Made by a program: the position numbers and the translations under genes
Assembly: GCA_024654525.1 (NCBI GenBank)
Contig: JANLHI010000030.1
Location: forward strand, 2,886-66,885
DNA length: 64,000 bases
Source: Patescibacteria group bacterium
GTDB lineage: Bacteria > Patescibacteriota > Minisyncoccia > UBA6257 > 2-01-FULL-56-20
Direction of reading: 5' to 3'
Notes under the pieces: generated by a model
What the model saw: the letters and a program-made list of their open reading frames with translations, nothing else
Databases searched by the model: none
Told to the model about the DNA's origin: nothing
In this document: positions 2,785-18,069 of the stretch, piece after piece
How positions within the stretch are numbered: the first letter of the stretch is position 1
Layout of the letters: every line of letters begins with the position of its first letter

Positions 2785-4062
2785 ATGCCTGCACAAAAAC
2801 TTTCATGGAGGAACGAAGTGCGTCGGGTTTCGGATCTCGTGCCGAATCCGAAAAACCCTCGTTCCATCTCGCCGAAGCAGATGGAGGACTTGAAGCGCAG
2901 TCTCAAGAAATTCGGCCTGGTCGAATTGCCCGCGATAAACACTAACAACAGAATCTTGGCCGGACACCAACGCCTCCTCGCGCTCCAACTCCTCGGACGC
3001 GGTGACGAAAAGATTCCCGTTCGCGTGCCAACGCGCCCGCTCACAAAGAAGGAATACGATCAATATCTTCTGACCAGTAACCGCGTCCACGGTGAATGGG
3101 ATTATCAAATGCTCGCCGAGCAATTCGATGTCGAAATGCTCCTCGCCTCAGGCTTTGACGACGGGGATCTCTCGGTTATTTTCGACGATCTTCAAGTGGA
3201 AGACGACGAATTCGATCCGGAAAAAGAATTAAAGAAGATAAAGAAAACGGATGTGAAGCCGGGAAGTCTCTACCAACTGGGACCGCACCGTATTCTTTGT
3301 GGCGACAGCACCAATTCCGAAGTCGTCAAGAAACTCATGGGCGGCAAGAGTGCGGCGGTCATTCTCCAAGATCCCCCGTACAACATCGGTCTCAGCTATA
3401 ACAAAGGCATCGGCGGGAAAGGTAATTACGGCGGTGAAACGAACGACGCGAAGTCAGACGAAGAATATGAATCATTTCTCCGCAAAGCCCTTGCGAATGG
3501 CGTCGACGCCTGCGAGAAGGACGCACACGTGTTCACATACCACGATCCCCGCTACACCTGGCTTTTGCAAAAACTTTACAAAGAGCTGGGCATCGCGTAC
3601 AAGCGGACGTGTTTGTGGGTAAAAAATAATTCTACGCCCACACCTAACGTCGCCTTCAATCGCCAATATGAACCGGCGCTCTACGGCGTTATCGGGAAAC
3701 CGTATCTTTCGGAGCGATCATTCAATTTTTCCGAGATCTTAAACCGCGATGTTGGGATCGGTAATCGCACCATAGACGACATTTACGATTTGATAGACAT
3801 CTGGCTCGTAAAGCGGCTCGGCGGTTCGGAGTATGAGCATCCCACTGAAAAGCCGCCCATGCTGCACGAGCGGCCGCTGCGGCGTTGCACTAAGCCGGGA
3901 GATATCGTGCTTGATCTGTTCTCTGGTTCATCCAGTATTATGGTCGCTTGCCACGGGTTGAAGCGCATCGCGTATATGGTCGAACGCGAGCCGATTTTCG
4001 TTCAATTATCGCTAAACAGATATGCCAAACTTACGGGAGAAAAAGCAAAAAGGATCGCCTAA
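2785..4062 (+). CDS. ParB-like nuclease domain fused to an N6-adenine/N4-cytosine DNA methyltransferase (phage-type)
   Basis: N-terminal VPNPKNPR...ILAGHQRLLA matches a ParB N-terminal domain. The DPPY motif (ILQDPPYN) and C-terminal HPTEKP...DLFSGSSS (motif I) indicate a beta-class amino-MTase. Confidence 0.8.
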   Translation: MPAQKLSWRNEVRRVSDLVPNPKNPRSISPKQMEDLKRSLKKFGLVELPAINTNNRILAGHQRLLALQLLGRGDEKIPVRVPTRPLTKKEYDQYLLTSNRVHGEWDYQMLAEQFDVEMLLASGFDDGDLSVIFDDLQVEDDEFDPEKELKKIKKTDVKPGSLYQLGPHRILCGDSTNSEVVKKLMGGKSAAVILQDPPYNIGLSYNKGIGGKGNYGGETNDAKSDEEYESFLRKALANGVDACEKDAHVFTYHDPRYTWLLQKLYKELGIAYKRTCLWVKNNSTPTPNVAFNRQYEPALYGVIGKPYLSERSFNFSEILNRDVGIGNRTIDDIYDLIDIWLVKRLGGSEYEHPTEKPPMLHERPLRRCTKPGDIVLDLFSGSSSIMVACHGLKRIAYMVEREPIFVQLSLNRYAKLTGEKAKRIA

Positions 4063-4795
4063 GCCCGGCACGATCTGGCAGCTTGGCGATCATCGCTTGG
4101 CTTACGGCGACGCTCGCGACAAAGAGTTACTGAAGCGACTTATCGGCGTGGAGAAAATAAACCTTGTCTGTTGCGACGTTCCATACGGAGTGGATGTCGC
4201 AGCGTCAAAGCGCAACTTCCGCACGCTTTCTAAAGACAGAGATATTGCTAACGACCAATTGCAGTCGGACGACGAGTATCGGAAGTTTACAAGCGACTGG
4301 CTGCAGGCGGTATCGTCGTTTCTTGCCGCCAAAAACTCCGCCTACATATTTAATGCCGATAAGATGGTTTGGTCTTTGCGGGACGGCATGATTGATTCCG
4401 GTTTCAAGGTGGCCCAACTTCTTATTTGGATCAAATCTCAAGCAGTGGTAGGACGACTTGATTATTCTCCGCAGCACGAGCTTATCCTCTACGGCTGGCG
4501 CGGAACGCATAAATACCGCCGCTCAAAAGACAAAAGCGTCTTGTTCTATCCGCGGCCGTCGAAAAGCAAACTACATCCGACGACCAAACCCATTGGTCTT
4601 ATCCGGAGGCTTATTCTTAACTCCTCGGAAATCGGTGGTGCGGTCTACGACGGGTTTTTAGGCAGCGGTACTCTGCTTTTGGCTTGTGAGGAAACGCGCC
4701 GCAAATGCTTCGCAGTTGAGATTGATCCCGAGTATTGTCTCACGTCAATTTTCCAATGGGAGCGCCTGACCGGTAAAAAAGCAGAGCAGATATGA
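4022..4795 (+). CDS. DNA methyltransferase (N6A/N4C, beta-class)
   Basis: DVPY motif (CCDVPYGV) and HPTTKP...YDGFLGSGT motif I. It overlaps the upstream MTase by ~40 nt. Confidence 0.8.
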   Translation: MPNLREKKQKGSPKPGTIWQLGDHRLAYGDARDKELLKRLIGVEKINLVCCDVPYGVDVAASKRNFRTLSKDRDIANDQLQSDDEYRKFTSDWLQAVSSFLAAKNSAYIFNADKMVWSLRDGMIDSGFKVAQLLIWIKSQAVVGRLDYSPQHELILYGWRGTHKYRRSKDKSVLFYPRPSKSKLHPTTKPIGLIRRLILNSSEIGGAVYDGFLGSGTLLLACEETRRKCFAVEIDPEYCLTSIFQWERLTGKKAEQI

Positions 4796-5235
4796 AAAAG
4801 ACCGATCACATAAAAGAGCTGCTTATAGATCAGCTGCGCAGGACGCCAATCGTTGAGGCCGCTTGTCAGAAAGCGAACATTTCCCGCATGACGTTTTATC
4901 GTTGGAAAAATGAGGACAAAGAATTCGCAAAAAAGGTCGACGAGGCGCTTTCCGACGGGCAGCTTCTTGTGAACGATCTCGCCGAAAGCCAGCTTATTGG
5001 CGCGGTCAAAGATCGGAATTTTCAAGCGATTGCCTATTGGCTCAAACACCACCATCCGAGCTACAAAACGCGTATTGAAATCGAGGGAGCGCTCAACACC
5101 GTGCACGAACTTTCACCAGAACAAGAAAAACTTATGCGAAAAGCGTTTGAACTGGCAGGCATTAACATTGATGACTACGAAGAAGCACGAGATACGAGTC
5201 AAAAAAGTAACCAACTAAAACAAATCAATGAGTAA
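4792..5235 (+). CDS. Phage terminase small subunit-like HTH protein
   Basis: HTH ISRMTFYRWKNEDKEF, an ATGA overlap with the upstream gene, and a position directly upstream of TerL. Confidence 0.5.
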   Translation: MKKTDHIKELLIDQLRRTPIVEAACQKANISRMTFYRWKNEDKEFAKKVDEALSDGQLLVNDLAESQLIGAVKDRNFQAIAYWLKHHHPSYKTRIEIEGALNTVHELSPEQEKLMRKAFELAGINIDDYEEARDTSQKSNQLKQINE

Positions 5236-6712
5236 CAATTCTGACGACGATAAAAACGTTTTTGAAGCCATCGCAAAAGACCGCGTTCTTCGGCAGCAGC
5301 TTGGTCAGCGCAGCCATCACATGTTTTTCGTAATGTACTTTCCGCACTACATCAAATACCCCGTGGCGGAATTTCACAAAGATATTTTTCGCATCACCGA
5401 AGATCAGTCGACGAATCTTGCCTGCATCGTGGCGTTCAGGGGAAGCGGCAAGAGCACGCTAGTAACTTTTTCATATTCTCTCTGGTCGATCCTTGGCATC
5501 CAGCAAAAAAAGTTTGTCCTTATTATCTGTCAGACCCAAGCTCAGGCCAGACAGCACATGGCCAATCTCAAATTTGAGCTTGAGCAGAATACCCTCCTCA
5601 AAAGCGACATGGGACCGTTCCGCGAGGAAGCCGGCGACGGCCAGTGGGCCATATCGTCTCTTGTGTTCAAAAACACTGGAGCTCGGATAATGATCGCTTC
5701 AATAGATCAAAGTATTCGAGGTATTCGCCACCACGAATACCGCCCCGACCTTATCATTCTGGACGACATTGAGGACAGTAATTCCGTGAAAACCTTCGAG
5801 GGCCGCATCAAAATATCCGATTGGTTTTCCCGAGAGGTGGTGCCGCTCGGGGATATCGGAACTCGCATCATTCTCGTTGGCAACCTTCTTCACGAAGCCG
5901 CGCTTACGATAAGTCTCCGAAACAAAATTGACCGCAAAGAAATACGCGGCACCTACCGTTGGTTTCCGCTCATCGACGAAAGCGGAGCATGCCTGTGGCC
6001 AGGTAAATTTGATACGTCGGATAAAATTGAGGCTCTTCGTCAAAGCGTTGGCAACGAAATAGCCTGGCAGCAAGAGTATCTTCTCAATATTGTCTCTGAC
6101 AGCTCTCGTGTCATATTCCCGGAGTGGATTCGCTACTACGACGAGCTGCCCAGCGAAACATTGCGGAGTATCCACGTGGGCGTTGATCTGGCCATATCCC
6201 AGCGGGAAGGAGCCGATTTCACGGCAATGGTTGGCTTACGCCGCTATGGATACGGCAACACCATGCGTCTCTACGTGATTCCGAACCCGTTTAACAAGCG
6301 GGTGCCGTTTCCCGAAGTAGTGGCTACCATAAAAACTCTTGATCGAACGTTCAAAGCCAAAGGAGAGCATGCCAAATTCATTGTTGAGTCGAATGGTTTT
6401 CAAGAAATCTATGTGCACGCGGTAAGCGACAGCGGTTGCGACGTTAAGGGCGTAAAGCATACTGGGGACAAGCGTTCGCGACTGGCACTCACGAGCCAGC
6501 TTATTCAAAACGGTACGATTGTATTTCCGCGCCGTGGAGCGGAAGAACTTATCGCGCAACTCACGGGGTTTGGGGTAGAAAACCATGATGATTTGGCGGA
6601 TGGGTATAGCACCGCTGTACTCGATGTTATGAATGACATAGAAAACGACCGGGGTTGGGAGGCATGGATGCAGTGGGTGAAAAGCAATGGCGGAAGTTGT
6701 CAGATTAGGTAG
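5228..6712 (+). CDS. Phage terminase large subunit
   Basis: Walker A AFRGSGKST, Walker B LIILDDIED, and C-terminal RNaseH-like nuclease acidic motifs (VGVDLA, HDDLADG). Confidence 0.8.
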   Translation: MSNNSDDDKNVFEAIAKDRVLRQQLGQRSHHMFFVMYFPHYIKYPVAEFHKDIFRITEDQSTNLACIVAFRGSGKSTLVTFSYSLWSILGIQQKKFVLIICQTQAQARQHMANLKFELEQNTLLKSDMGPFREEAGDGQWAISSLVFKNTGARIMIASIDQSIRGIRHHEYRPDLIILDDIEDSNSVKTFEGRIKISDWFSREVVPLGDIGTRIILVGNLLHEAALTISLRNKIDRKEIRGTYRWFPLIDESGACLWPGKFDTSDKIEALRQSVGNEIAWQQEYLLNIVSDSSRVIFPEWIRYYDELPSETLRSIHVGVDLAISQREGADFTAMVGLRRYGYGNTMRLYVIPNPFNKRVPFPEVVATIKTLDRTFKAKGEHAKFIVESNGFQEIYVHAVSDSGCDVKGVKHTGDKRSRLALTSQLIQNGTIVFPRRGAEELIAQLTGFGVENHDDLADGYSTAVLDVMNDIENDRGWEAWMQWVKSNGGSCQIR

Positions 6713-6827: not shown

Positions 6828-7322
6828 TCATGCCGCCTTATTAAGCTTTTTCTTTCTAAGAAGAATATATGCAATGCCTAAAACTAAAGAGATGCCGAGA
6901 GGCGGAAGTGCGTACATTATAATACCGACAATGTTATATAAGATCGAGGCACTCGTATTTAGTGCATCAAATAACCACGGCACGATAAACTGATAGGAAA
7001 TATACATTAAAAACGCCCAAACCACTGCCTTGATAAAGTTATAAAGACCCCACAAACCCATCCCTTTTACCAAGATGTCATGCAATACCTTGTAGAAGCG
7101 AGCCATATACAGTAGGAATCCGAGCGTAAAAAACGTAAAAGCGCTATAGAAAGCTCGAACAAAGATGCTCGGCTGCTCAAACGGCTCGATCTGTTGCCAT
7201 TCAAAATGTATTCCCAAAACGAAGCGCCACAATAAAAACACTAACGCTAAAATGATATATGTCGATGCGGATCTAACAATATCATTTACATACTTCAATA
7301 TCGTTGCTTTATGCCACTTCAT
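6828..7322 (-). CDS. 4-TM membrane protein co-transcribed downstream of the ABC-ATPase
   Basis: 164 aa with four hydrophobic helices. Its start lies 5 nt after the ATPase stop. Confidence 0.45.
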   Translation of the reverse strand: MKWHKATILKYVNDIVRSASTYIILALVFLLWRFVLGIHFEWQQIEPFEQPSIFVRAFYSAFTFFTLGFLLYMARFYKVLHDILVKGMGLWGLYNFIKAVVWAFLMYISYQFIVPWLFDALNTSASILYNIVGIIMYALPPLGISLVLGIAYILLRKKKLNKAA

Positions 7323-7327
7323 TTTTA

Positions 7328-8791
7328 TTATTTACCGGCCTTTCTCTTGCCGTACTTTAATTCTCGAAGTGTACTTATAGATTTGACAAGATCTTCTGAC
7401 AAGAATTTACTATTCTTTGAATTTTCTGGATGATGGATAGAGTTACGAATGTATTTTGGCAGAGAAACGTTCTCTGTCTTGCTTAATTTATCATTGAACC
7501 ACTTTTCCGTTGTTGGAAGTCCGTTTAATTTACTTGGGTCAATATCTTCGAGATAGCCATACAGTTCGTTGTGGTAATCGTTTGTGGGTATACCGAATAC
7601 TTCGTAGTTCACTTCCGAATAGGAGCTATCCTTACCTTTGATTTGCTCAAGCTTTGTTTTCTTGTTGCCTTGTTTTACAACTCGGAAGCATCGGTCTATA
7701 TGGTCTTTGTCAATCATATAATTTGAGTGCGTTGCAAAAATGACAACGTTGTTCTCCTTATTCTTTGAGATCTTTATAAGTTCATTCCTCAAGTATTCCT
7801 GCGCTTGTGGGTGTAGGTGGGTTTCCGGCTCATCCAGCAGCAATAACGAATACGATAATTGATCAGTGGAGCTTTCTGCTGAAATTGTAAGAAGAAATGA
7901 TACGAATTGTCTGAATCCATCGCTTCTTTGGTTTGTTGTTTTAGAATCGTATTTTACTCCGACATCCTCAACCAAAAATGATAGCATCATGTTATTGATC
8001 TGAAATTTGATCTTGACCGGATGATTCTCCCACACCTTCTTGATGTGAGCAGTGACCTTATCTCCCAGCTTATCTTGGAGATCACTAACCTCGGCTGGAT
8101 CGGTCAACAGCTTACTTATGGCTGCTGGGATGTTTGCCTCATCAATACCTGCTAATCGAAAACAATTTAGCAGTGGGATTGATGTTTTCTCGGGTGCTGC
8201 AGAAAAAGCATTGAGATCAATTTGATCATTAATAAGGTATTCATTGGTTGATTTCCAAAAAGTGACGTGGTGTGAAATCTTCCAAAAGTAAGTCGGCAAG
8301 GTAGTTTCGAAATAAGTTTGAAGATTAAAATCATCTTGCGTTAGTTCCGGATTCTTCTTTATTGGTTTATCTCCCTCAAGAGTATAGTCGGGAAAAATGT
8401 GCGTCTTAAATTGGATACGATCAAAGTTTTTTCTTGCCGGTGTTGCTGTCGGCTCATAACCCACGCAAACATCTACCTCCTCAATCTGTATCTTTGAAAG
8501 CAGATCTTTTTCAAAGCCCTTTGCCTCAAGCTCCTTCTTCAGATTTTTCTCCTCGCTTACTTCTAGATTGTAGGTTAGTAAGACGCTGATCGGTTTTGAT
8601 TCGTTGAAATAATCTTTAGGAAACAAGACGTCGCCACTATCTACCAAAGAAACAGCTCTCAAAAAACTACTCTTTCCTGATTCATTGATACCAATGAGTG
8701 TGTAGGTTTTACCACCATGAATCTCTTCGACATTAAACGTTTCGTTTTCAATGCTCCTGAAGTTTTCGATTGTTATTTTTCTAATCTTCAT
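7328..8791 (-). CDS. SMC-head/ABC-type ATPase (AAA_15/21-like) with a C-terminal HEPN-like R-x4-H motif. PrrC/RloC-like anticodon-nuclease candidate.
   Basis: N-terminal ITIENFRSI...GINESGKSS (Walker A), LLLLDEPETHLHP (Walker B/D-loop) and ATHS (H-loop). The C-terminal tail contains KYIRNSIHHPEN. The gene is in a type I R-M locus. Confidence 0.55.
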   Translation of the reverse strand: MKIRKITIENFRSIENETFNVEEIHGGKTYTLIGINESGKSSFLRAVSLVDSGDVLFPKDYFNESKPISVLLTYNLEVSEEKNLKKELEAKGFEKDLLSKIQIEEVDVCVGYEPTATPARKNFDRIQFKTHIFPDYTLEGDKPIKKNPELTQDDFNLQTYFETTLPTYFWKISHHVTFWKSTNEYLINDQIDLNAFSAAPEKTSIPLLNCFRLAGIDEANIPAAISKLLTDPAEVSDLQDKLGDKVTAHIKKVWENHPVKIKFQINNMMLSFLVEDVGVKYDSKTTNQRSDGFRQFVSFLLTISAESSTDQLSYSLLLLDEPETHLHPQAQEYLRNELIKISKNKENNVVIFATHSNYMIDKDHIDRCFRVVKQGNKKTKLEQIKGKDSSYSEVNYEVFGIPTNDYHNELYGYLEDIDPSKLNGLPTTEKWFNDKLSKTENVSLPKYIRNSIHHPENSKNSKFLSEDLVKSISTLRELKYGKRKAGK

Positions 8792-8802
8792 ATATTTAGC
8801 GC

Positions 8803-11800
8803 TTATGCGTACACGTTTACCTTCGTGTCGACGTAGTTATCATACACATGAAAATATACCTTCTGCGTTCGATCTTCGCAGTCGGGATCGGTATATGTCG
8901 GCTCCGGTAGCTCGTCGTAAAGTATCTTTGCAATAGTGACTTTGACATCAGCGCGCGTTTCTTCTTTCTTCTTCCAGTCCAGCACAAGCTTCTCTTGTTT
9001 TAGTCGAGCCAATAGCTCTTTAGCTACCTTTTTGACCTGATCAATCTCGCTCGGGTTTAAATTCTCTTTACGGAGAATGTCGAATACCGCCAGCTCTTCT
9101 TCGGTAAGGTTCTCTGAAACAGCACGGCGATCTTCATCGCTCAATTCCTTTGCAAGCTCTACTAGCTGGTTAAAGAAGGCATCAAGATCATGCGATCCGG
9201 TATTGTATTCGTGTAGGAGCTTATTTAGGCGGTCTAGGAAGTGTTTGCGGAGCTTGTTCTTGCGTACCATCTCTTTGATCTTCTCTTCCAGCTCGGCGCT
9301 CAATGCCTCAGCTTCAATGTTCTGCGTATCAGAATCATCAAAAAACTTCCTCAGTACCTCGAAGTCAATCTTGCTCAAGTCCTTAAGTTTCGGCACATCT
9401 TTGATCACATACTCGCCAGCGCGGATAGAGCGATCAAGTAGGTTTTCAAGATCCTTTTTCACCTGCGACACGTTTGTATCTTCATCGATCACCTCGCGGA
9501 TACGCGATGCAATAACTTTGTATGCCGTCACTTCGTGATAATAATCTTCCGCCTTCGGTTCCGGCAAAACTGCTTTGTAGTATTTGTACGCGTCACCAGC
9601 AAGATCAAGATATCGCTGCTTTGTTTTTTCATTTTGGAGGATGCGGTTTGTGAATACATCCACAAGCCGGATCTTCTCGACATCTTTTGCTTCGAGAAGG
9701 TCGTTGATATCCAGCTCGAGTGTCTTTAGAAATTGCCTTGTCTTTGCGACGGTAGCAAAAAGTATTTCCACCAGCTCATTTTTGTCTTTGATAATCTCAT
9801 CATCTCCGTCTTTTGTAGATGCATAAACTGCGAGTGCTTTTTGTAGGTTACGGAATACCCCGATGTAGTCGACGATCAAGCCATTCGTTTTATTTGGATA
9901 GACACGGTTTGCGCGAGCGATGGTTTGCATCAGCGTGTGATTCTTGAGTGGCTTATCGAGATAAAGCGTTGAAAGGTTCGGTACATCAAAGCCGGTCATC
10001 CACATCGCGCACACAAACACGATCCGCAGATTGCTATCCGGATCCTTAAACTTGGTTTCAAGATCTTCGTTTAGAATACGAGCGCGCAGTGGGCGCATGT
10101 CAATCTCGAATTCTTCCATGTCGGCAATTTCATTTTGGCTTTGGCTTACCACAACCGCCATGTCGATGTTCTCATATTTCTGAACCTGTTCTCTCAACAT
10201 TTCTTTCTCGTGGTCATCCTTTGCTTTGGTAACGGCGATATTCATCTTTGCTAGATGGCGCTGCATCTCTGCCTTCACTTTCGCGTACATGCGAATGGCA
10301 GTTTTCTTGTCGATAGAAACAACCATCGCCTTACCGTCATATCCACGAGCAGTAAAGTGCGTGACGATATCCTCTGCAACTTTATTAAGGCGATCTTCAC
10401 GTGTGATCAGATGATAGAAAGTCGAAAATTCCTGCTCAAGCTTCTCTTCTTCGTCGGTCGAGAGTTCATAGAAGTCCATCACTTTCTCAAGATCCTTTTG
10501 GATCTCCGGATTCTCATTTTCAAGTTTGGGTACTCGGTTTTCGTAGTAAAGAGGCACCGTAGCACCATCTTCTACCGACTGGGCGAAGTTATAGGTCGAC
10601 ACGTAGTCACCGAAGGTTTCTCGGGTCTTTTCTTCGCCCTTAGCCATCAGTGGCGTGCCTGTAAAGCCAATAAATGCGGCTTTGGGCATCGCTATGCGCA
10701 TATTCTGCGCCAAGCGGTCATATTGGGTACGATGCGCCTCATCTACCATCACAATGATGTCGCTGCGCTCTGAAAGCACCGGCGGTTTCTCTTCGGGCTT
10801 CGTACCGAATTTATGGATCAAAGAAAAGATGTGACGATGATCTTCAGTTAAGAGCTGGCGGAGATTGAGAATCGAATCAGCATGTACTTCTTCTTTATAT
10901 ACCGCACCGCAGGCAGAGAATGTTTTGTATATCTGCCTGTCGAGTTCAGTTCTGTCAGTTACGACAATGAAAGTGAAGTTGCCAGTCATCTTTCGTAGCA
11001 CCTTTTGCGAAAGGAAGATCATGGAGTACGACTTGCCGGATCCTTGCGTATGCCAAAAGACACCAAGTCGTCCGTGATTTTTGTCGCGATTCTTGATCTG
11101 ATCAAACGCCTGATTTACTCCGAGTAGCTGGAAGTAACGAGATATAGCTTTTACTCTCTCGCGGAAGGAATCATCAAACAGTGTGAAGTTTTCAATAATA
11201 TCGAGAAGTCGTGAAGGTTCACAAGTTCCTTTAATAACTGTTTCCAAACTCACGCGCCCTTCCTCACTCTCGCTCTTTATCTTTTTCCATTCATTAAAAT
11301 GCTCGTATGCGGAAGTGAGTGTTCCTACTTTAGTTTCGATGCCGTTAGAGAGGATGATAAAACCATTGTGCCAAAAGAGCTGCGGAATAGTGTCTTTATA
11401 ATCACGGATGTTTTCTTGATAGGCATTTCGTAGATTCTTATGTGATGCCTTCAGTTCGATCAATACGAGCGGTAAGCCATTCACGAAACCGATCAGATCG
11501 GGACGGCGCTTGTGAAGCTCTCCGGTGATCCACATTTGGGATACCAGCAAGAAGTCATTATTCGCTGCGTTTTCAAAATCAAAGACGCGGATGTTGATAC
11601 TTTCAAACGCGCCCTGCTCGGTTCGGATCTCTGTTTTGATTCCGTCTTTTATAAGCTTGTAGATGTCATGGTTAGCATTGACCATGCTTGCAGTAGAACG
11701 ATCGCGCGTGAGTTCAGTAATAGCTTGAGCGATTGCTTCCTGTGGCGCATCCGGATTGAGCTTCTCAAGTGCCAGCTTTAAGCGATTAACCAAAACAACC

Positions 11801-11937
11801 TGCCCTTGATTCTCACGCCCCAAAAGAGCATCTCCTTCTTCGGAGTAGGCATTGATAAAATTCTTAACACCCCAAGGCTCCGCAAAAATCTTTACGGCTG
11901 TTTGCTCAATTAAATTGTTTTCAGAAAATTCATTCAT
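8803..11937 (-). CDS. hsdR: Type I restriction enzyme R subunit
   Basis: 1044 aa with a DEAH box (MVDEAHRTQ) and SF2 helicase motifs. It overlaps hsdS by 4 nt. Confidence 0.9.
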   Translation of the reverse strand: MNEFSENNLIEQTAVKIFAEPWGVKNFINAYSEEGDALLGRENQGQVVLVNRLKLALEKLNPDAPQEAIAQAITELTRDRSTASMVNANHDIYKLIKDGIKTEIRTEQGAFESINIRVFDFENAANNDFLLVSQMWITGELHKRRPDLIGFVNGLPLVLIELKASHKNLRNAYQENIRDYKDTIPQLFWHNGFIILSNGIETKVGTLTSAYEHFNEWKKIKSESEEGRVSLETVIKGTCEPSRLLDIIENFTLFDDSFRERVKAISRYFQLLGVNQAFDQIKNRDKNHGRLGVFWHTQGSGKSYSMIFLSQKVLRKMTGNFTFIVVTDRTELDRQIYKTFSACGAVYKEEVHADSILNLRQLLTEDHRHIFSLIHKFGTKPEEKPPVLSERSDIIVMVDEAHRTQYDRLAQNMRIAMPKAAFIGFTGTPLMAKGEEKTRETFGDYVSTYNFAQSVEDGATVPLYYENRVPKLENENPEIQKDLEKVMDFYELSTDEEEKLEQEFSTFYHLITREDRLNKVAEDIVTHFTARGYDGKAMVVSIDKKTAIRMYAKVKAEMQRHLAKMNIAVTKAKDDHEKEMLREQVQKYENIDMAVVVSQSQNEIADMEEFEIDMRPLRARILNEDLETKFKDPDSNLRIVFVCAMWMTGFDVPNLSTLYLDKPLKNHTLMQTIARANRVYPNKTNGLIVDYIGVFRNLQKALAVYASTKDGDDEIIKDKNELVEILFATVAKTRQFLKTLELDINDLLEAKDVEKIRLVDVFTNRILQNEKTKQRYLDLAGDAYKYYKAVLPEPKAEDYYHEVTAYKVIASRIREVIDEDTNVSQVKKDLENLLDRSIRAGEYVIKDVPKLKDLSKIDFEVLRKFFDDSDTQNIEAEALSAELEEKIKEMVRKNKLRKHFLDRLNKLLHEYNTGSHDLDAFFNQLVELAKELSDEDRRAVSENLTEEELAVFDILRKENLNPSEIDQVKKVAKELLARLKQEKLVLDWKKKEETRADVKVTIAKILYDELPEPTYTDPDCEDRTQKVYFHVYDNYVDTKVNVYA

Positions 11938-13247
11938 ATATTTATATTGCCGGTAACAAGCTTAGACAGTAAAGCGTCTTTGGAGTTTGATAATGAATCC
12001 ATTTGCTTATTTAAATTCAGCCCTAAATCTATAAGTGCGCTGACTAAATTCTCATATTCAGTTACTAATGAGATAGGAGGTAAAACCATTTTTAAATTCA
12101 GTGTCTGCACGGGACTTAAATTTTGTTGTGCCACACCATTTGAAAGCAATTCGAGTTTTTTCTTAAAAGATTCCGATCGAAAAAGTGAATATACAAAACT
12201 CTTATACACCGCATCTTTTGGAACGATCTTTCCTACGCGCTGGTTGAGCAGGAGATTTTCACCGTAAACAATGCAAACGCGTCCAACATTTCCGGTTAAT
12301 GACAGCAAAATATCACCATCGTTGAGTCGGCAATGATCCGGCATTTTTGGGGGAATTTCGGCAATGTAGTTAAAATCGGAAATAAATTTACCATCATGTA
12401 TATTTTTTATTGTTATGATTCTGTATAGCCCTGTTGTAACATAATCTTTCCCCTTAAAAGCATGGCCAGATTTAATATCCAAAATTGATTCTAAATTACA
12501 AATTTTCCATCCTTCTGGGATCTTCCCAAATTCGGTACCGCTATCAACCATTTTAATTTTCTCGTGATTGGGAAAGCGATAATTTACGAACCATTCAGTG
12601 TAAATAACCTGCATCATCAGCTCCAATATCTTGATCCGGCGAGTGTTATTTTCGATAAGATCATCATAAGGAGATAGATGATTAACGATACTCTCTTGAA
12701 CCTGAATCGGTGGAAGTGACAATTCGATATTCAAAAGATCCGACACTTTTACGCTTGGTTGAGCGGCGCCTCGATCCAATTCGGTTATCTTGTTTTTATT
12801 GAAAAATAGAAAATAATATAAAAACTCGTTTAAGCAACCCTTGCCGCATCTTATGCCTATTGTATTTTGAATTATCACACTCTTTTTCTTAGGTGCTAGA
12901 GCAACATTCCCAAAACCATTACCAACAAGTGTTACAAGAACATCCTTCTCTTTGAGGTATTTTCTTATAAAATCGTGAAATGTTTTTTCATCAATAAATC
13001 TTCTTGCGTTTGCTAAAGCCACGGATCTCGTACCAGTTATCAGGAAATTATCGATAACGGGAATTCCTTCATTATAAAAAGCTTGTGGATTTTTCCCTCT
13101 GTTATCAACAATGTAATCTACCAAAGCACTTAGCTTTGTATTATTCCAATTATTTTTTGCAGCAGTGATGGTCATATCAGAATAACTTTCCAAAATTCTT
13201 GCTAATTTTATTCTCAAGACCATGCGCTTCTTCTGTGAGCTTCTCAA
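11934..13247 (-). CDS. hsdS: Type I R-M specificity subunit. The real start is probably Met25 (MTITAAK, ~13175).
   Basis: Two target-recognition-domain repeats with conserved central and C-terminal coiled regions. It lies between hsdM and hsdR. Confidence 0.85.
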   Translation of the reverse strand: MRSSQKKRMVLRIKLARILESYSDMTITAAKNNWNNTKLSALVDYIVDNRGKNPQAFYNEGIPVIDNFLITGTRSVALANARRFIDEKTFHDFIRKYLKEKDVLVTLVGNGFGNVALAPKKKSVIIQNTIGIRCGKGCLNEFLYYFLFFNKNKITELDRGAAQPSVKVSDLLNIELSLPPIQVQESIVNHLSPYDDLIENNTRRIKILELMMQVIYTEWFVNYRFPNHEKIKMVDSGTEFGKIPEGWKICNLESILDIKSGHAFKGKDYVTTGLYRIITIKNIHDGKFISDFNYIAEIPPKMPDHCRLNDGDILLSLTGNVGRVCIVYGENLLLNQRVGKIVPKDAVYKSFVYSLFRSESFKKKLELLSNGVAQQNLSPVQTLNLKMVLPPISLVTEYENLVSALIDLGLNLNKQMDSLSNSKDALLSKLVTGNINI

Positions 13248-14703
13248 GCTCTGTATTTATCCCTCGTACAGTCGTTTCAAAATCGACGTCGCTTACGTTC
13301 TCATTATCTGCTGCGCCAACATATCGACCAGAATTTAAGGAATAACCAGCCGCGCGCACTTCTTCAAGGGCGGCTACCTTGCAAAGCCCCTTAATATCTG
13401 TGTATTTCTTTATACCTTCTCCGCGATAGCTACGCACGATATCGGCTATTTGCTGTATCTGTTCCTCCGTCCAGTCGCGATGCGCGCGATCAATTTGATG
13501 GTAGATATTTCGCGCATCAATGAAAAGAATTTTATCCTTGCGATCAGTTTTCTTTTTACCTTTGTCTAGGAACCACAAGGTAACTGGCAAGGTGACGTTG
13601 TAGAACATGTTTGATCCTACGGCGACCATTACATCAACCACGCCATCATCAATCATTTTTGCGCGAATATCCTTTTCGCTGTGTCCGGCATCGCTTGCAG
13701 AGTTAGCCATAACAAAACCAGCACGACCAGTATTTTTTAATGCACTCAAGAAAATCTGAATCCAAAGAAAGTTTCCATTATCAGTGCGAGGCAAGCCATG
13801 CGGAAAGCGAGGATCATCTTTAATGCGCTCCTTGTCGATACCATTCACGTTGAAAGGAGGATTCGCCATAGCGAAGTCAAACTTCCCAAGTGAACGATGT
13901 AGATCTTCGTAGTAGGTATTGCCTTGTTTGATATCACCGGATAGACCGTGAATCGCAAGGTTCATCTTTGCAATGCGAACCGTTTGGTCAGTTTTCTCTT
14001 GACCGTAGATAGATACTTCACGCGCCGCTTTTAACTTCTTTCCTTTCTCAAAATGACGCTTGATGAACTCAACAGATTGCACAAACATACCACCGGATCC
14101 GCAGGCAGGATCGTAAATATATCCCTTGAACGGCTCAAGAATTTCGACGATCAGCTTAACAATAGAAGTCGGTGTGAAGAACTCACCACCGCCTGATCCG
14201 TCTGCGATGGCGAACTTACCCAAGAAGTATTCATAAATAAGACCGAAGGCATCACCTTCAATCGTGTCCGGAATCTGATTGAAATTTTTGAGAAGTGAGA
14301 TGATAGCTGAATTTTCCAGCAAGTTGTAATTCTTCGGTAGGATACCAGCAAGCTCTTTGTTTTCTCCTTCAATAGTTTTCATCGCATCATTTACTGCCTT
14401 ACCCATGTTTGTACCTTCAGGAAGGGTTATGAGATGTGAGTAGTGAGCGCCTTCAGGAATATACAAAACGCCACGAGAGTGATAATCCTCGGGCGTGATA
14501 GGACGCTGGCGCTTGGATGTTGCTTTTGCACGCTCTGCCTCAAGATCCTTTTTAGCGGCGATAAATTTAACGTCGGCAAACTTCAAGAAGATAAGCCCCA
14601 AAACCGGTTCGGCAAACTCATTCAAGCGAAGCGCAGAATTAGCGCGGAGATGATCCGCCGCTTCCCACAATCTACTCTCGAGTTGTTTGGTATCTGATGA
14701 CAT
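13177..14703 (-). CDS. hsdM: Type I R-M N6-adenine methyltransferase subunit
   Basis: N-terminal HsdM_N domain (LWEAADHLR), an NPPF motif (ANPPFNV), and the SAM-binding motif GKFAIADGSGGGEFFTP. Confidence 0.9.
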   Translation of the reverse strand: MSSDTKQLESRLWEAADHLRANSALRLNEFAEPVLGLIFLKFADVKFIAAKKDLEAERAKATSKRQRPITPEDYHSRGVLYIPEGAHYSHLITLPEGTNMGKAVNDAMKTIEGENKELAGILPKNYNLLENSAIISLLKNFNQIPDTIEGDAFGLIYEYFLGKFAIADGSGGGEFFTPTSIVKLIVEILEPFKGYIYDPACGSGGMFVQSVEFIKRHFEKGKKLKAAREVSIYGQEKTDQTVRIAKMNLAIHGLSGDIKQGNTYYEDLHRSLGKFDFAMANPPFNVNGIDKERIKDDPRFPHGLPRTDNGNFLWIQIFLSALKNTGRAGFVMANSASDAGHSEKDIRAKMIDDGVVDVMVAVGSNMFYNVTLPVTLWFLDKGKKKTDRKDKILFIDARNIYHQIDRAHRDWTEEQIQQIADIVRSYRGEGIKKYTDIKGLCKVAALEEVRAAGYSLNSGRYVGAADNENVSDVDFETTVRGINTELEKLTEEAHGLENKISKNFGKLF

Positions 14704-14706
14704 AAG

Positions 14707-14952
14707 TTATTTTTGGCTTTGTTTAAGAAATTTTAATATGTCTTCTTTCTTATAGCGTCTATCCCGCCGACTTCCAAAACGCATTGCTTTTAATATGCCA
14801 CGGTTGTCCCACTTGCGGAGAGTATTAGGATGACAATTCAGAATCTCGCAGGCCTGTTGAAGCGTGAGAATATCGGGCATCTGTTTTATTTTAGGGCGCT
14901 GTTTTTTCATAAAAGCATAACTTAACACAAGTTTACACGACAATTTAAGCAT
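14707..14952 (-). CDS. Excisionase/MerR-type HTH DNA-binding protein. The start is probably the internal Met (MKKQRPK, ~14910).
   Basis: The segment LTLQQACEILNCHPNTLRKWDNRGIL is a Xis-family HTH. It is adjacent to the serine recombinase. Confidence 0.5.
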   Translation of the reverse strand: MLKLSCKLVLSYAFMKKQRPKIKQMPDILTLQQACEILNCHPNTLRKWDNRGILKAMRFGSRRDRRYKKEDILKFLKQSQK

Positions 14953-15042: not shown

Positions 15043-16380
15043 ATGACCAACCAAACTACAGGGCCGGTGGGAGCTGTGGCCCAAACACAAATCCAGCTTC
15101 CCATAAAGGTCAAATACGTGCTCTATGCGAGGAAAAGCACGGAAAGCGAGGAACAGCAGATCCTTTCCATAGACAGCCAGATCAAGGAGATGCTCCAGAT
15201 GGCCGAACGTGACCATCTGGAGGTGGTAGAGATCAAGAAAGAGTCGCACTCGGCAAAGGAAGCGGGGCAACGTCCAGTGTTCAATGAGATCGTCGATGAA
15301 ATCAAAAGTGGCAAATTCAACGGAATACTTACATGGGCGGCAGACCGTATATCGAGAAACGCCGGAGACCTCGGAAGAATCGTGGACCTCATGGACAGCG
15401 GAAAGTTGATTGAGATACGCACCTACGGGCAGAAGTTCACCAACAGCCCGAACGAGAAGTTCCTCCTTATGATATTGGGCTCGCAGGCTAAGCTCGAGAA
15501 CGACAATAAGGTGGTGAATGTGAAGCGCGGGTTAAGGGCGCGATGCGAGATGGGGCTATGGCCATGCACGGCACCGACGGGATACCTGAACAGCACGATT
15601 AAGGAGAAAAGCTGCCATGTAGAAATTGATCCCCACAGGGCTCCCATGATTAAGAAGATGTTTGAGAAAGTGGCCTACGAGAACATGAGCGGGCGACGGC
15701 TTCACGCATGGCTCAAGGACGAGGCTAAGTTCCGGGTAAGGAGTGGCAAGCCGCTCACGATCAGCAATATATACATCACTCTGCGAAATACTTTCTACTA
15801 CGGCTCATTCGAATATCCGAGAGGCGGTGGGCAGTGGTATGCCGGGAAGCATATGCCCATCATCACCAAGGAACTCTTCGACAAGGTGCAGGAGAAAATG
15901 GCTAACTATGCGGTGCGCGGGGAAACAAAGGAATTCGCCTTCACGAAACTCATGACCTGCGGACTATGCGGATCTGGTATCACGGCCGATGAGAAATTCA
16001 AGAAACAACAAAATGGCAATGTACACAGGTACGTCTACTACGGTTGCTGCCGGTTCCAGGATAAGAACTGCAAATCGGGATATATGCGAGAAGAAGATCT
16101 GATCGAGCAGCTCGCAAAGCTGATGGATAAAATTGACCTCGATGAGATCGGCATGAAGGAGCGGATTAAAATTGAAATCGAACGGCACAAGAAATTCCAG
16201 TCGGGACTTTTGGGGATAAAGGAAAAGACGATCAAAGTCGGCGACATTGACGTGCGAAATTACGCGAAGTACGTGTTGCGAGACGGAACGATACTTGAGA
16301 AGCGAGAGTTGTTATCTTGCCTGCGTAGTAAGGTGACGATGGCGGAGAGAGAAGTGAAGATTGCTCAAGCTAAGACTTAA
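15043..16380 (+). CDS. Serine recombinase (resolvase N-terminal domain plus recombinase and zinc-ribbon domains)
   Basis: Catalytic region YARKSTESEEQQ...SIDSQ, ADRISRN, and a C-terminal CGLCGS...YYGCCRFQDKNC zinc ribbon. Confidence 0.8.
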   Translation: MTNQTTGPVGAVAQTQIQLPIKVKYVLYARKSTESEEQQILSIDSQIKEMLQMAERDHLEVVEIKKESHSAKEAGQRPVFNEIVDEIKSGKFNGILTWAADRISRNAGDLGRIVDLMDSGKLIEIRTYGQKFTNSPNEKFLLMILGSQAKLENDNKVVNVKRGLRARCEMGLWPCTAPTGYLNSTIKEKSCHVEIDPHRAPMIKKMFEKVAYENMSGRRLHAWLKDEAKFRVRSGKPLTISNIYITLRNTFYYGSFEYPRGGGQWYAGKHMPIITKELFDKVQEKMANYAVRGETKEFAFTKLMTCGLCGSGITADEKFKKQQNGNVHRYVYYGCCRFQDKNCKSGYMREEDLIEQLAKLMDKIDLDEIGMKERIKIEIERHKKFQSGLLGIKEKTIKVGDIDVRNYAKYVLRDGTILEKRELLSCLRSKVTMAEREVKIAQAKT

Positions 16381-17912: not shown

Positions 17913-17997
17913 GCAAAAACCAGTCAATAGATTGATCGGTTATGGAAACACGGGAGACCGGGCTTTCCAAGCCCGCTCGGTCGGTCTCACATGCCTG

Positions 17998-18069
17998 TGC
18001 CCTCGAGAGGAATCGAACCTCTATCTTCACGTTAGGAGTGTGAAGCTCTATCCATTGAGCTACGAGGGC
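17998..18069 (-). tRNA. tRNA-Arg(CCT)
   Basis: Cloverleaf folded by hand: acceptor GCCCTCG/CGAGGGC, anticodon loop CTCCTAA, T-arm AGAGG-TTCGATT-CCTCT. Its 3' end faces the island. Confidence 0.75.

Follow-up and report, generated by a model that had tools for sequence, protein, structure and literature searches.

ATP-binding cassette (ABC) ATPases that act in bacterial defence have been sorted by their effectors, with Toprim in OLD, Gabija and PARIS, HNH in Septu, and HEPN in the Rad50-like PrrC and RloC, the only two for which HEPN effectors were listed (10.64898/2026.07.10.737580). In addition, P2 Old was recently reported to be an abortive tRNase (10.64898/2026.07.10.737580), and PrrC, the anticodon nuclease of the EcoprrI locus, constitutes a second line of defence which is released when the restriction-modification (R-M) enzyme is attacked (PMC3710099). 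In this study, we report on a stretch of 64,000 nucleotides (hereafter, the window) from contig JANLHI010000030.1 of a Patescibacteria group bacterium, in which the fourth gene of a type I R-M operon encodes a 487-amino acid (aa) ABC ATPase with a HEPN-like C-terminal domain (C-domain). By function and architecture its closest described counterparts are PrrC and RloC, by homology they are OLD, AriA and GajA, and membership in PrrC/RloC, in OLD as a Toprim nuclease or in PARIS fails in each case on a defining feature. We propose, with a probability of roughly 0.55, that the protein is a single-polypeptide nuclease of the abortive-infection type, built like PrrC and RloC but from different parts.

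As in PrrC, an N-terminal ABC ATPase and a small C-terminal domain with an R/H motif (HEPN class) are joined in one polypeptide, whose gene lies inside a type I hsdMSR operon. The heads differ, being AAA_13 in PrrC and AAA_15/AAA_21 in the window protein. The PrrC gene is found between hsdS and hsdR, whereas that of the window follows hsdR; its relatives in other loci (designated by L numbers) lie between hsdM and hsdS (L036, L039) or between hsdS and hsdR (L127). RloC also combines an ABC ATPase with a C-terminal HEPN-class domain, which is a tRNase in RloC; both it and the family described here are often autonomous, and RloC is sometimes carried on prophages or islands. However, the head of RloC is AAA_13 and its long coiled-coil insert bears a CxxC zinc hook, and no CxxC was found in the 487 aa of the window protein. 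PADLOC includes models for PrrC and RloC, and neither was matched when 44 C-domains were scanned at E <=1; PADLOC v2 holds no model for the C-domain. Membership in PrrC/RloC is thus ruled out by the AAA_15/AAA_21 head, the lack of a zinc hook and the lack of a PADLOC match of the C-domain, and the PrrC/RloC-like identity proposed in the first-pass annotation had to be given up in favour of an OLD/AriA-like head. One of the loci analysed (L143, 45933-48149, minus strand) contained a 738-aa AAA ATPase of E. coli APEC O1 (NC_008563.1, 925932-928148), located between the replication endonuclease and portal genes of a P2-like prophage, which is the position of the old/tin hotspot. From its position and description, it is probably APECO1_4465, which Anantharaman et al. 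2013 list as an ABC-HEPN protein. Its AAA_13 style and CPFC zinc hook make it RloC-like, and it was ruled out as a member of the window family.

The ATPase gene (7328-8791, minus strand) encodes a protein identical to a database entry named 'AAA family ATPase'. Its residues 1-384 (7640-8791, minus strand) constitute the head which, as judged from profile matches, is an OLD/AriA-type ABC ATPase. AAA_15 (7e-23) aligned with residues 1-360 over the full profile and AAA_21 (1.3e-16) spanned the C-terminal half of the head, with no Pfam match to AAA_13, the PrrC/RloC family, at E <=0.01 and none to Toprim or OLD-like_TOPRIM. The top PADLOC matches were Old (3e-29), AriA (4.6e-24), ATPase-Toprim, GajA, mad3, AbiLi, HEC-01A, NsnB and PtuA, that of AriA running end to end (residues 1-360 against positions 1-373 of 373). 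Among the PDB sequences, only the class 2 OLD nuclease 6p74 (1.5e-6) and one other AAA ATPase were matched. The motifs previously quoted for this protein were all located, namely Walker A GINESGKSS (residues 34-42), LLLLDEPETHLHP (316-328), H-loop ATHS (353-356) and KYIRNSIHHPEN (446-457), in addition to a signature-like QRSDGF (288-293). It must be noted that LLLLDEPETHLHP, which had been read as the D-loop, does contain it and comprises the Walker B as well.

The protein therefore shares with OLD (P2 Old, classes 1 and 2) and GajA a homologous ATPase head and, given its predicted nuclease, the fusion of ATPase and nuclease in one polypeptide, the difference being that a helical R-x4-H domain of about 100 aa stands where OLD has its Toprim. 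PARIS is an anti-restriction-triggered system that cleaves tRNA. The window ATPase resembles it through the end-to-end AriA match, but AriB is a Toprim protein (DUF4435) and the predicted nuclease of the window is fused and not Toprim; no AriB (DUF4435) or Toprim gene was found in the window operon. A further computational class, the ERFG_01251-type proteins, consists of an N-terminal ABC ATPase and a 'classical' HEPN domain near the MNT-associated type (PMC3710099). It resembles our family in that the weak best HEPN structural match of the C-domain, 8xdj, is an MNT-type toxin and in that E. coli has members of the window family; unlike the latter, it has no reported R-M linkage. From the description, ERFG_01251 proteins and the window family may be the same, and no experimental study of that class was found in the searched literature.

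The C-domain comprises residues 385-487 (7328-7639 with the stop codon, minus strand). Residues from about 385 to 487 had no match in Pfam, NCBIfam, PADLOC or the PDB sequences, and a search of the latter with a C-domain profile returned only chance-level matches. The same profile, run against 1.84 billion representative proteins, recovered 796 clusters (at 50% identity) at E <=0.001 and 305 at <=1e-10. The domain is nearly always C-terminal, in proteins of 450-530 aa, and 97 of 99 sampled members have an AAA_15/AAA_21 head; AAA_13 was touched weakly by only 4 of them. When 99 diverse members were aligned (mean column identity of 12%), the only invariant columns were R449 and H454, within the R449-N-S-I-H-H454 motif (codons at 7430-7447, minus strand) that we predict to be catalytic. 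Position 450, next to the arginine, was H in 51 and N in 48 sequences, I452 was kept in 93/99, H453 in 95/99, and P455, E456 and N457 in 93-95/99. Upstream, H407 (96/99) and E409 (94/99) were conserved within the 'DYHNELYG' helix. An R-x4-H string is trivial by itself; the two residues being the only invariant ones in this alignment is what places the motif beyond chance. Retention of R and H in homologs, on which the HEPN proposal of the first-pass annotation had been made to depend, was thus found throughout the sample. In addition, since the more distant relatives without the C-domain are bona fide OLD proteins with the ATPase fused to Toprim (OLD-like_TOPRIM in L134, Toprim also in L049), the C-domain fills the nuclease slot of an OLD-type scaffold. 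Some of these Toprim-bearing relatives lie in R-M operons too, in the order hsdM-hsdS-OLD-hsdR (L049, L050, L056).

The fragment comprising residues 372-487 was modelled with AlphaFold2 (AF2), with a mean pLDDT score (predicted local distance difference test) of 84.5 and values >90 over fragment residues 30-110. In the numbering of the model, the elements are helix 20-28, helix 33-46, a short helix 48-52, a beta-hairpin 58-71, helix 73-82, the PEN loop and helix 94-109. The motif (R78...H82-H83) is located at the end of helix 73-82, and the conserved acidic E409 in helix 33-46. HEPN domains are described as four-helix up-down bundles with a frequent insert between helices 2 and 3, an R-x4-6-H motif at the end of the third helix, a polar N, D or H after the R, and a conserved acidic residue in helix 2 (PMC3710099). 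In the order of its elements, which is how the comparison was made, as opposed to three-dimensional packing, the predicted C-domain fits every one of these descriptors, including the R-x4-6-H with a polar residue after the arginine (PMC3710099). Foldseek found no match of the model in the PDB, and the best HEPN structural match, 8xdj, was weak, as mentioned above. Scattered matches of single members to HEPN_Apea, Cas13-ApeA and Cas13d are regarded as hints only, and neither fold nor profile searches gave a statistically significant link to an established HEPN family. The earlier proposal of a HEPN-like extension is consequently upheld in the existence of a conserved domain, its invariant R/H pair and the HEPN helix order of the AF2 model, and lacks a significant HEPN match of sequence or fold. 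With all this, we consider the C-domain rather probably a true, divergent HEPN member.

The block of the window that holds the operon consists of six co-oriented open reading frames (ORFs) on the minus strand (14952-6828), encoding an 81-aa helix-turn-helix (HTH) protein, HsdM, HsdS, HsdR, the ATPase and a 164-aa membrane protein. HsdM (508 aa, 13177-14703) matched Pfam N6_Mtase (5.3e-91) and HsdM_N and PADLOC MTase_I (8.6e-202); HsdS (up to 437 aa, 11934-13247) matched Pfam Methylase_S in two stretches (9e-28) and PADLOC Specificity_I (1.6e-66); and HsdR (1044 aa, 8803-11937) matched HSDR_N, SWI2_SNF2, T1R_D3-like and T1RH-like_C, as well as TIGR00348 (9e-151) and REase_I (1.6e-186). Since the three genes overlap or adjoin one another on one strand, with strong matches in Pfam, PADLOC and NCBIfam, this is unambiguously a type I R-M operon, and the five ORFs from hsdM (start at 14703) through hsdR (end at 8803) to the ATPase and the 164-aa protein lie where the first-pass annotation had placed them. 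The ATPase is co-oriented and tightly spaced, 11 nt after hsdR, and the membrane gene follows it by 5 nt. Scans for consensus promoters and terminators in the operon performed no better than on shuffled sequence and, therefore, co-transcription is predicted from spacing only. Regarding hsdS, its longest ORF begins with TTG and overlaps hsdM by 71 nt, and the true start may be located further downstream. Between loci with 71-96% identity of HsdR and HsdM (L001, L087), identity falls to only 26-28% in HsdS, the pattern to be anticipated if specificity domains are swapped.

A scan of one genome per species yielded 80 loci with relatives of the ATPase; 40 of them carry the C-domain and 24 of these are well flanked, with at least 3 kb on both sides. 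Same-strand hsd genes were present in 12 of the 24, a lower bound given that only the Hsd proteins of the window served as probes, and lay within 400 nt in 8. The linkage of the ATPase to R-M loci elsewhere, another point on which the first-pass proposal had been staked, is therefore real. Besides Patescibacteria, the family is present in Bacteroidota, Chlorobiota, Pseudomonadota, Spirochaetota and others. In the clade of about 40% identity, the typical order is hsdM-ATPase-hsdS-(x)-hsdR (L017, L020, L025, L030, L035, L036, L039), and in the closest group (82%) it is hsdMSR-ATPase, as seen in the window, L001 and L140, the last of which also repeats the HTH-hsdM order. The contig of L141 ends just upstream of the ATPase, which is the same as in L001 and is followed by the same genes. 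In L127 (935-8483), hsdS is followed in turn by an AAA_15 ATPase with the C-domain, hsdR, an 806-aa DUF2254-like protein and the membrane protein, so that a family member occupies the PrrC position between hsdS and hsdR. The HsdR of L127 is 91% identical to that of the window, and the ATPase only 27%; near-identical R-M backbones carry different family members at different positions. The family has been repeatedly captured by type I R-M operons.

Other copies are lone genes, found on a Klebsiella IncFIB plasmid, on plasmids of Weissella and Lactobacillus helveticus, and beside the integrase of E. coli prophages. The Klebsiella copy (L137, 6263-7726; NZ_MN310379.1, WP_064155835.1) is situated between two ISNCY transposases, and that of E. 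coli SCU-316 (L142, 5998-7446; NZ_CP054371.1, WP_233618192.1) carries the RefSeq name 'ATP-dependent nuclease'. The E. coli homologue retains ...HNELYG...FIRNHIHHPEN.... Scans of IMG/VR for the ATPase and membrane families gave nothing, the peptide patterns used being specific to close clades.

HEPN RNases build a composite active site from a pair of R-x4-H motifs, and ABC ATPases dimerise head to head upon binding ATP; by analogy, the following mechanism can be envisaged. The OLD/AriA-type ATPase would act as sensor and switch and the C-domain as a metal-independent RNase of a divergent HEPN type. Either the ABC domains would dimerise head to head in an ATP-dependent manner or the trigger would induce a rearrangement, whereby a C-domain dimer would be assembled or exposed and the two R-x4-H motifs brought together. 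The resulting composite site would cut host RNA, most plausibly tRNA, by which translation would stop and the infection be aborted. Because lone genes on plasmids and prophages are numerous among the relatives, the protein can probably work on its own, as RloC does. In the copies embedded in R-M operons, the R-M complex might additionally keep the nuclease inactive until a phage disables that complex, as with PrrC. The recurrent capture by type I R-M operons makes such a guard role plausible, and we put this coupling forward only tentatively.

Several observations weigh against the nuclease proposal or its tie to R-M. About half of the ATPase loci are without R-M linkage, including almost all of those in the clade of 47-66% identity. 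When the C-domain was compared profile to profile with Ymh HEPN (PF09509, the profile being built from a neighbour gene in L141), YIRhxIHHPEN was placed opposite GxRNpVsHEE, and the helix after it was aligned too, in the correct register, but the hhalign P was 0.083, and of 29 column-shuffled controls one had a better score. The His-rich HHPEN string, with its conserved E and N, could by its composition be a metal site instead. Finally, HEC-01, a related ATPase-plus-Toprim candidate, gave no defence in the one published test (10.1101/2024.01.29.577857).

The 164-aa protein (6828-7322, minus strand) bears on a different explanation, in which the ATPase would sense infection, with the C-domain as a regulatory or docking part, and would activate the membrane protein, which in turn would kill or arrest the cell by membrane damage; the R-x4-H domain would then not be the effector. 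As claimed in the first-pass annotation, the gene starts 5 nt past the ATPase and its product has four hydrophobic segments, located by a hydropathy scan at about 22-40, 53-71, 96-118 and 131-149. It had no match in Pfam, NCBIfam, PADLOC or PHROGs; a protein search retrieved 142 homologues (56-78% identity), all of the named ones coming from Patescibacteria. The AF2 model (pLDDT 83) is all helical and returned only coiled-coil and long-helix noise in the fold search. The membrane-family loci (L081-L136 and L144-L147) include 42 non-redundant ones, of which 35 have a same-strand upstream ORF ending -11 to +20 nt from the ATG of the membrane gene, with an ATGA overlap in 14. Such translational coupling agrees with a two-gene system, as do the small gap in the window, the many sensor-type NTPases (such as NACHT, KAP, OLD and AAA_13) among the upstream partners, and L140, fetched through its 82%-identical ATPase, in which a member of the membrane family again lies downstream, after two tiny ORFs.

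Co-occurrence, on the other hand, does not sustain the partnership of ATPase and membrane protein suggested by the first-pass annotation. None of the 40 genomic loci of ATPases with the C-domain carries the membrane gene, and an HMM (hidden Markov model) search for distant homology between the 164-aa protein and the small membrane proteins downstream of other ATPase loci was negative. Conversely, a related ATPase is nearby in only two (L127, L134) of 53 metagenomic loci of the membrane family, and the plasmid and prophage ATPases are lone genes. The close relatives L001 and L141 lack the window-type membrane gene after the ATPase and have other genes at that place, so that the 3' end of this R-M island is a variable slot. 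The genes found there (L141 1733-4938, L001 9454-12659) encode a C5 DNA methylase, a HATPase_c_3 protein of 551 aa carrying a Ymh (HEPN) domain at its C-terminus, and a TspO/MBR membrane protein. Moreover, several upstream partners possess effectors of their own (PIN, Toprim), and the invariance of R and H speaks for a C-domain that is itself catalytic. We therefore consider the two-gene system unlikely.

Rather than being specific to the ATPase, the 164-aa protein is a Patescibacteria-specific module translationally coupled to whichever defence-type gene lies upstream. The upstream genes belong to at least 25 unrelated sequence clusters, mostly of defence type, and include DUF4209 (with a C-terminal LRNNFAHG motif), TPR-PIN, a UvrD helicase, HsdS, a 1954-aa NACHT, DUF2254-like and YgjP-like proteins and many unknowns. 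The positions one or two genes beyond these, also upstream, are occupied by a KAP NTPase, OLD, a true RloC-type (AAA_13) ATPase, an SF1 helicase and type III-like R-M genes. According to a hand tally, same-strand type I hsd genes precede the membrane gene in 7 of the 12 loci with enough sequence, and hsdR, a YgjP-like gene, a variable gene and the membrane gene is a frequent order. The YgjP-like gene encodes a predicted metallohydrolase of 248 aa (PF01863) and directly follows hsdR, overlapping it, in many type I R-M operons of Patescibacteria (L081 2348-3094; also L098, L100, L112, L124 and L106); it is absent from the window operon. In 8 loci the membrane gene is followed by a gene for an unknown protein of about 100 aa. 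No conserved DNA indicative of a cassette or recombination site was found upstream of the membrane gene, the sequence there being the 3' end of each differing gene, and a common C-terminal peptide in the partner proteins was looked for and not found.

Two readings of this arrangement can be given. Because of the tight translational coupling, we weakly favour a membrane module that diverse defence proteins share as effector, anchor or gate; less favoured is a conserved gene that closes defence operons, with exchange of variable genes taking place beside it. Under the former, many sensors with one membrane partner, the proteins served would be the OLD-type ATPase with the HEPN-like tail, NACHT, KAP, TPR-PIN, OLD, RloC-type AAA_13, UvrD, and type I and type III-like R-M. 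In its full form, the hypothesis is that Patescibacteria plug a shared membrane module behind dozens of unrelated defence proteins, among them the ATPase-HEPN-like protein as an uncharacterised fourth effector class of OLD-type ABC ATPases (after Toprim and HNH, and alongside the HEPN of PrrC/RloC); we hold this to be possible, with the odds rather against it.

More improbable than the two-gene system is that the C-domain is a non-catalytic module for binding a ligand, RNA or protein, in an independent ATPase of defence islands with no tie to R-M. It would agree with the lack of significant homology to any enzyme, with the R-M-free half of the loci, and with the existence of HEPN-like domains that are non-catalytic binders (PMC3710099). 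Nevertheless, non-catalytic HEPN domains typically lose the R-x4-6-H, which is here the only invariant feature across the 99 sequences. As for R-M, chance co-location would hardly account for hsd genes on the same strand within 400 nt in one third of the well-flanked loci (8/24), or for different family members at two places of near-identical R-M operons (window and L127).

Least probable of all is an OLD-like, metal-dependent DNase or other nuclease replacing Toprim, with HHPEN, H407 and E409 as metal site; the C-domain does stand exactly where OLD relatives carry Toprim, H407, E409, H453, H454, E456 and N457 could bind metal, the beta-hairpin before the motif helix superficially recalls a beta-beta-alpha-metal arrangement and the E. 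coli homologue bears a nuclease name in RefSeq, but the hairpin strands lack the conserved His needed by a His-Me finger (residue 433 varies, and position 431 has W or Y), which rules out the His-Me/HNH reading, no match to HNH, Toprim, PD-(D/E)xK or other nuclease families was obtained, and an invariant R with H at R+5 and H/N at R+1 is the HEPN signature and not any known metal-nuclease motif.

With respect to the genomic context, the R-M block is cargo of a phage-derived integrative element inserted beside a tRNA-Arg gene, as follows from the phage-type genes on its left and the serine integrase and tRNA-Arg on its right. The left flank, on the plus strand, encodes a LexA-like repressor (1320-1943), a ParB-methyltransferase (2785-4062), a second methyltransferase, a TerS-like protein (4792-5235) and the phage terminase large subunit (TerL; 5228-6712, phrog_38 3.6e-69), which is convergent with the island. 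The minus-strand block begins with the gene of the 81-aa HTH_17/MerR-like, excisionase-type DNA-binding protein (14707-14952; Pfam HTH_17 5e-13, PHROG excisionase/regulator families). To its right there are a large serine recombinase (15043-16380, plus strand) with Resolvase, Recombinase and Zn_ribbon_recom domains and an integrase match (phrog_95, 1e-59), two unknown genes, and tRNA-Arg(CCT) (17997-18069, minus strand; ARAGORN), followed by housekeeping genes (SDR, GATase and PilB/PilC-type). The tRNA gene is likely the integration site and the right boundary of the element. Since no portal or capsid genes follow TerL within the window, the element may be a remnant or may extend past position 1.

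If the nuclease proposal is true, an OLD-type head also drives a HEPN-like RNase, in an uncharacterised ATPase family that is widespread in Patescibacteria, Bacteroidota, Pseudomonadota, Bacillota plasmids and E. coli prophages. Its repeated capture by type I R-M operons would make the PrrC idea of guarding the restriction enzyme testable in a second, unrelated protein family, and the homologues of E. coli and Klebsiella make it convenient for experiments. An arrangement of many sensors and one membrane partner, if true, is not described for other bacteria. The membrane protein, in turn, provides a handle on the organisation of defence islands in Patescibacteria, whose immune systems are poorly known, and its gene could serve as a 'guilt-by-adjacency' marker for new defence genes in these bacteria.

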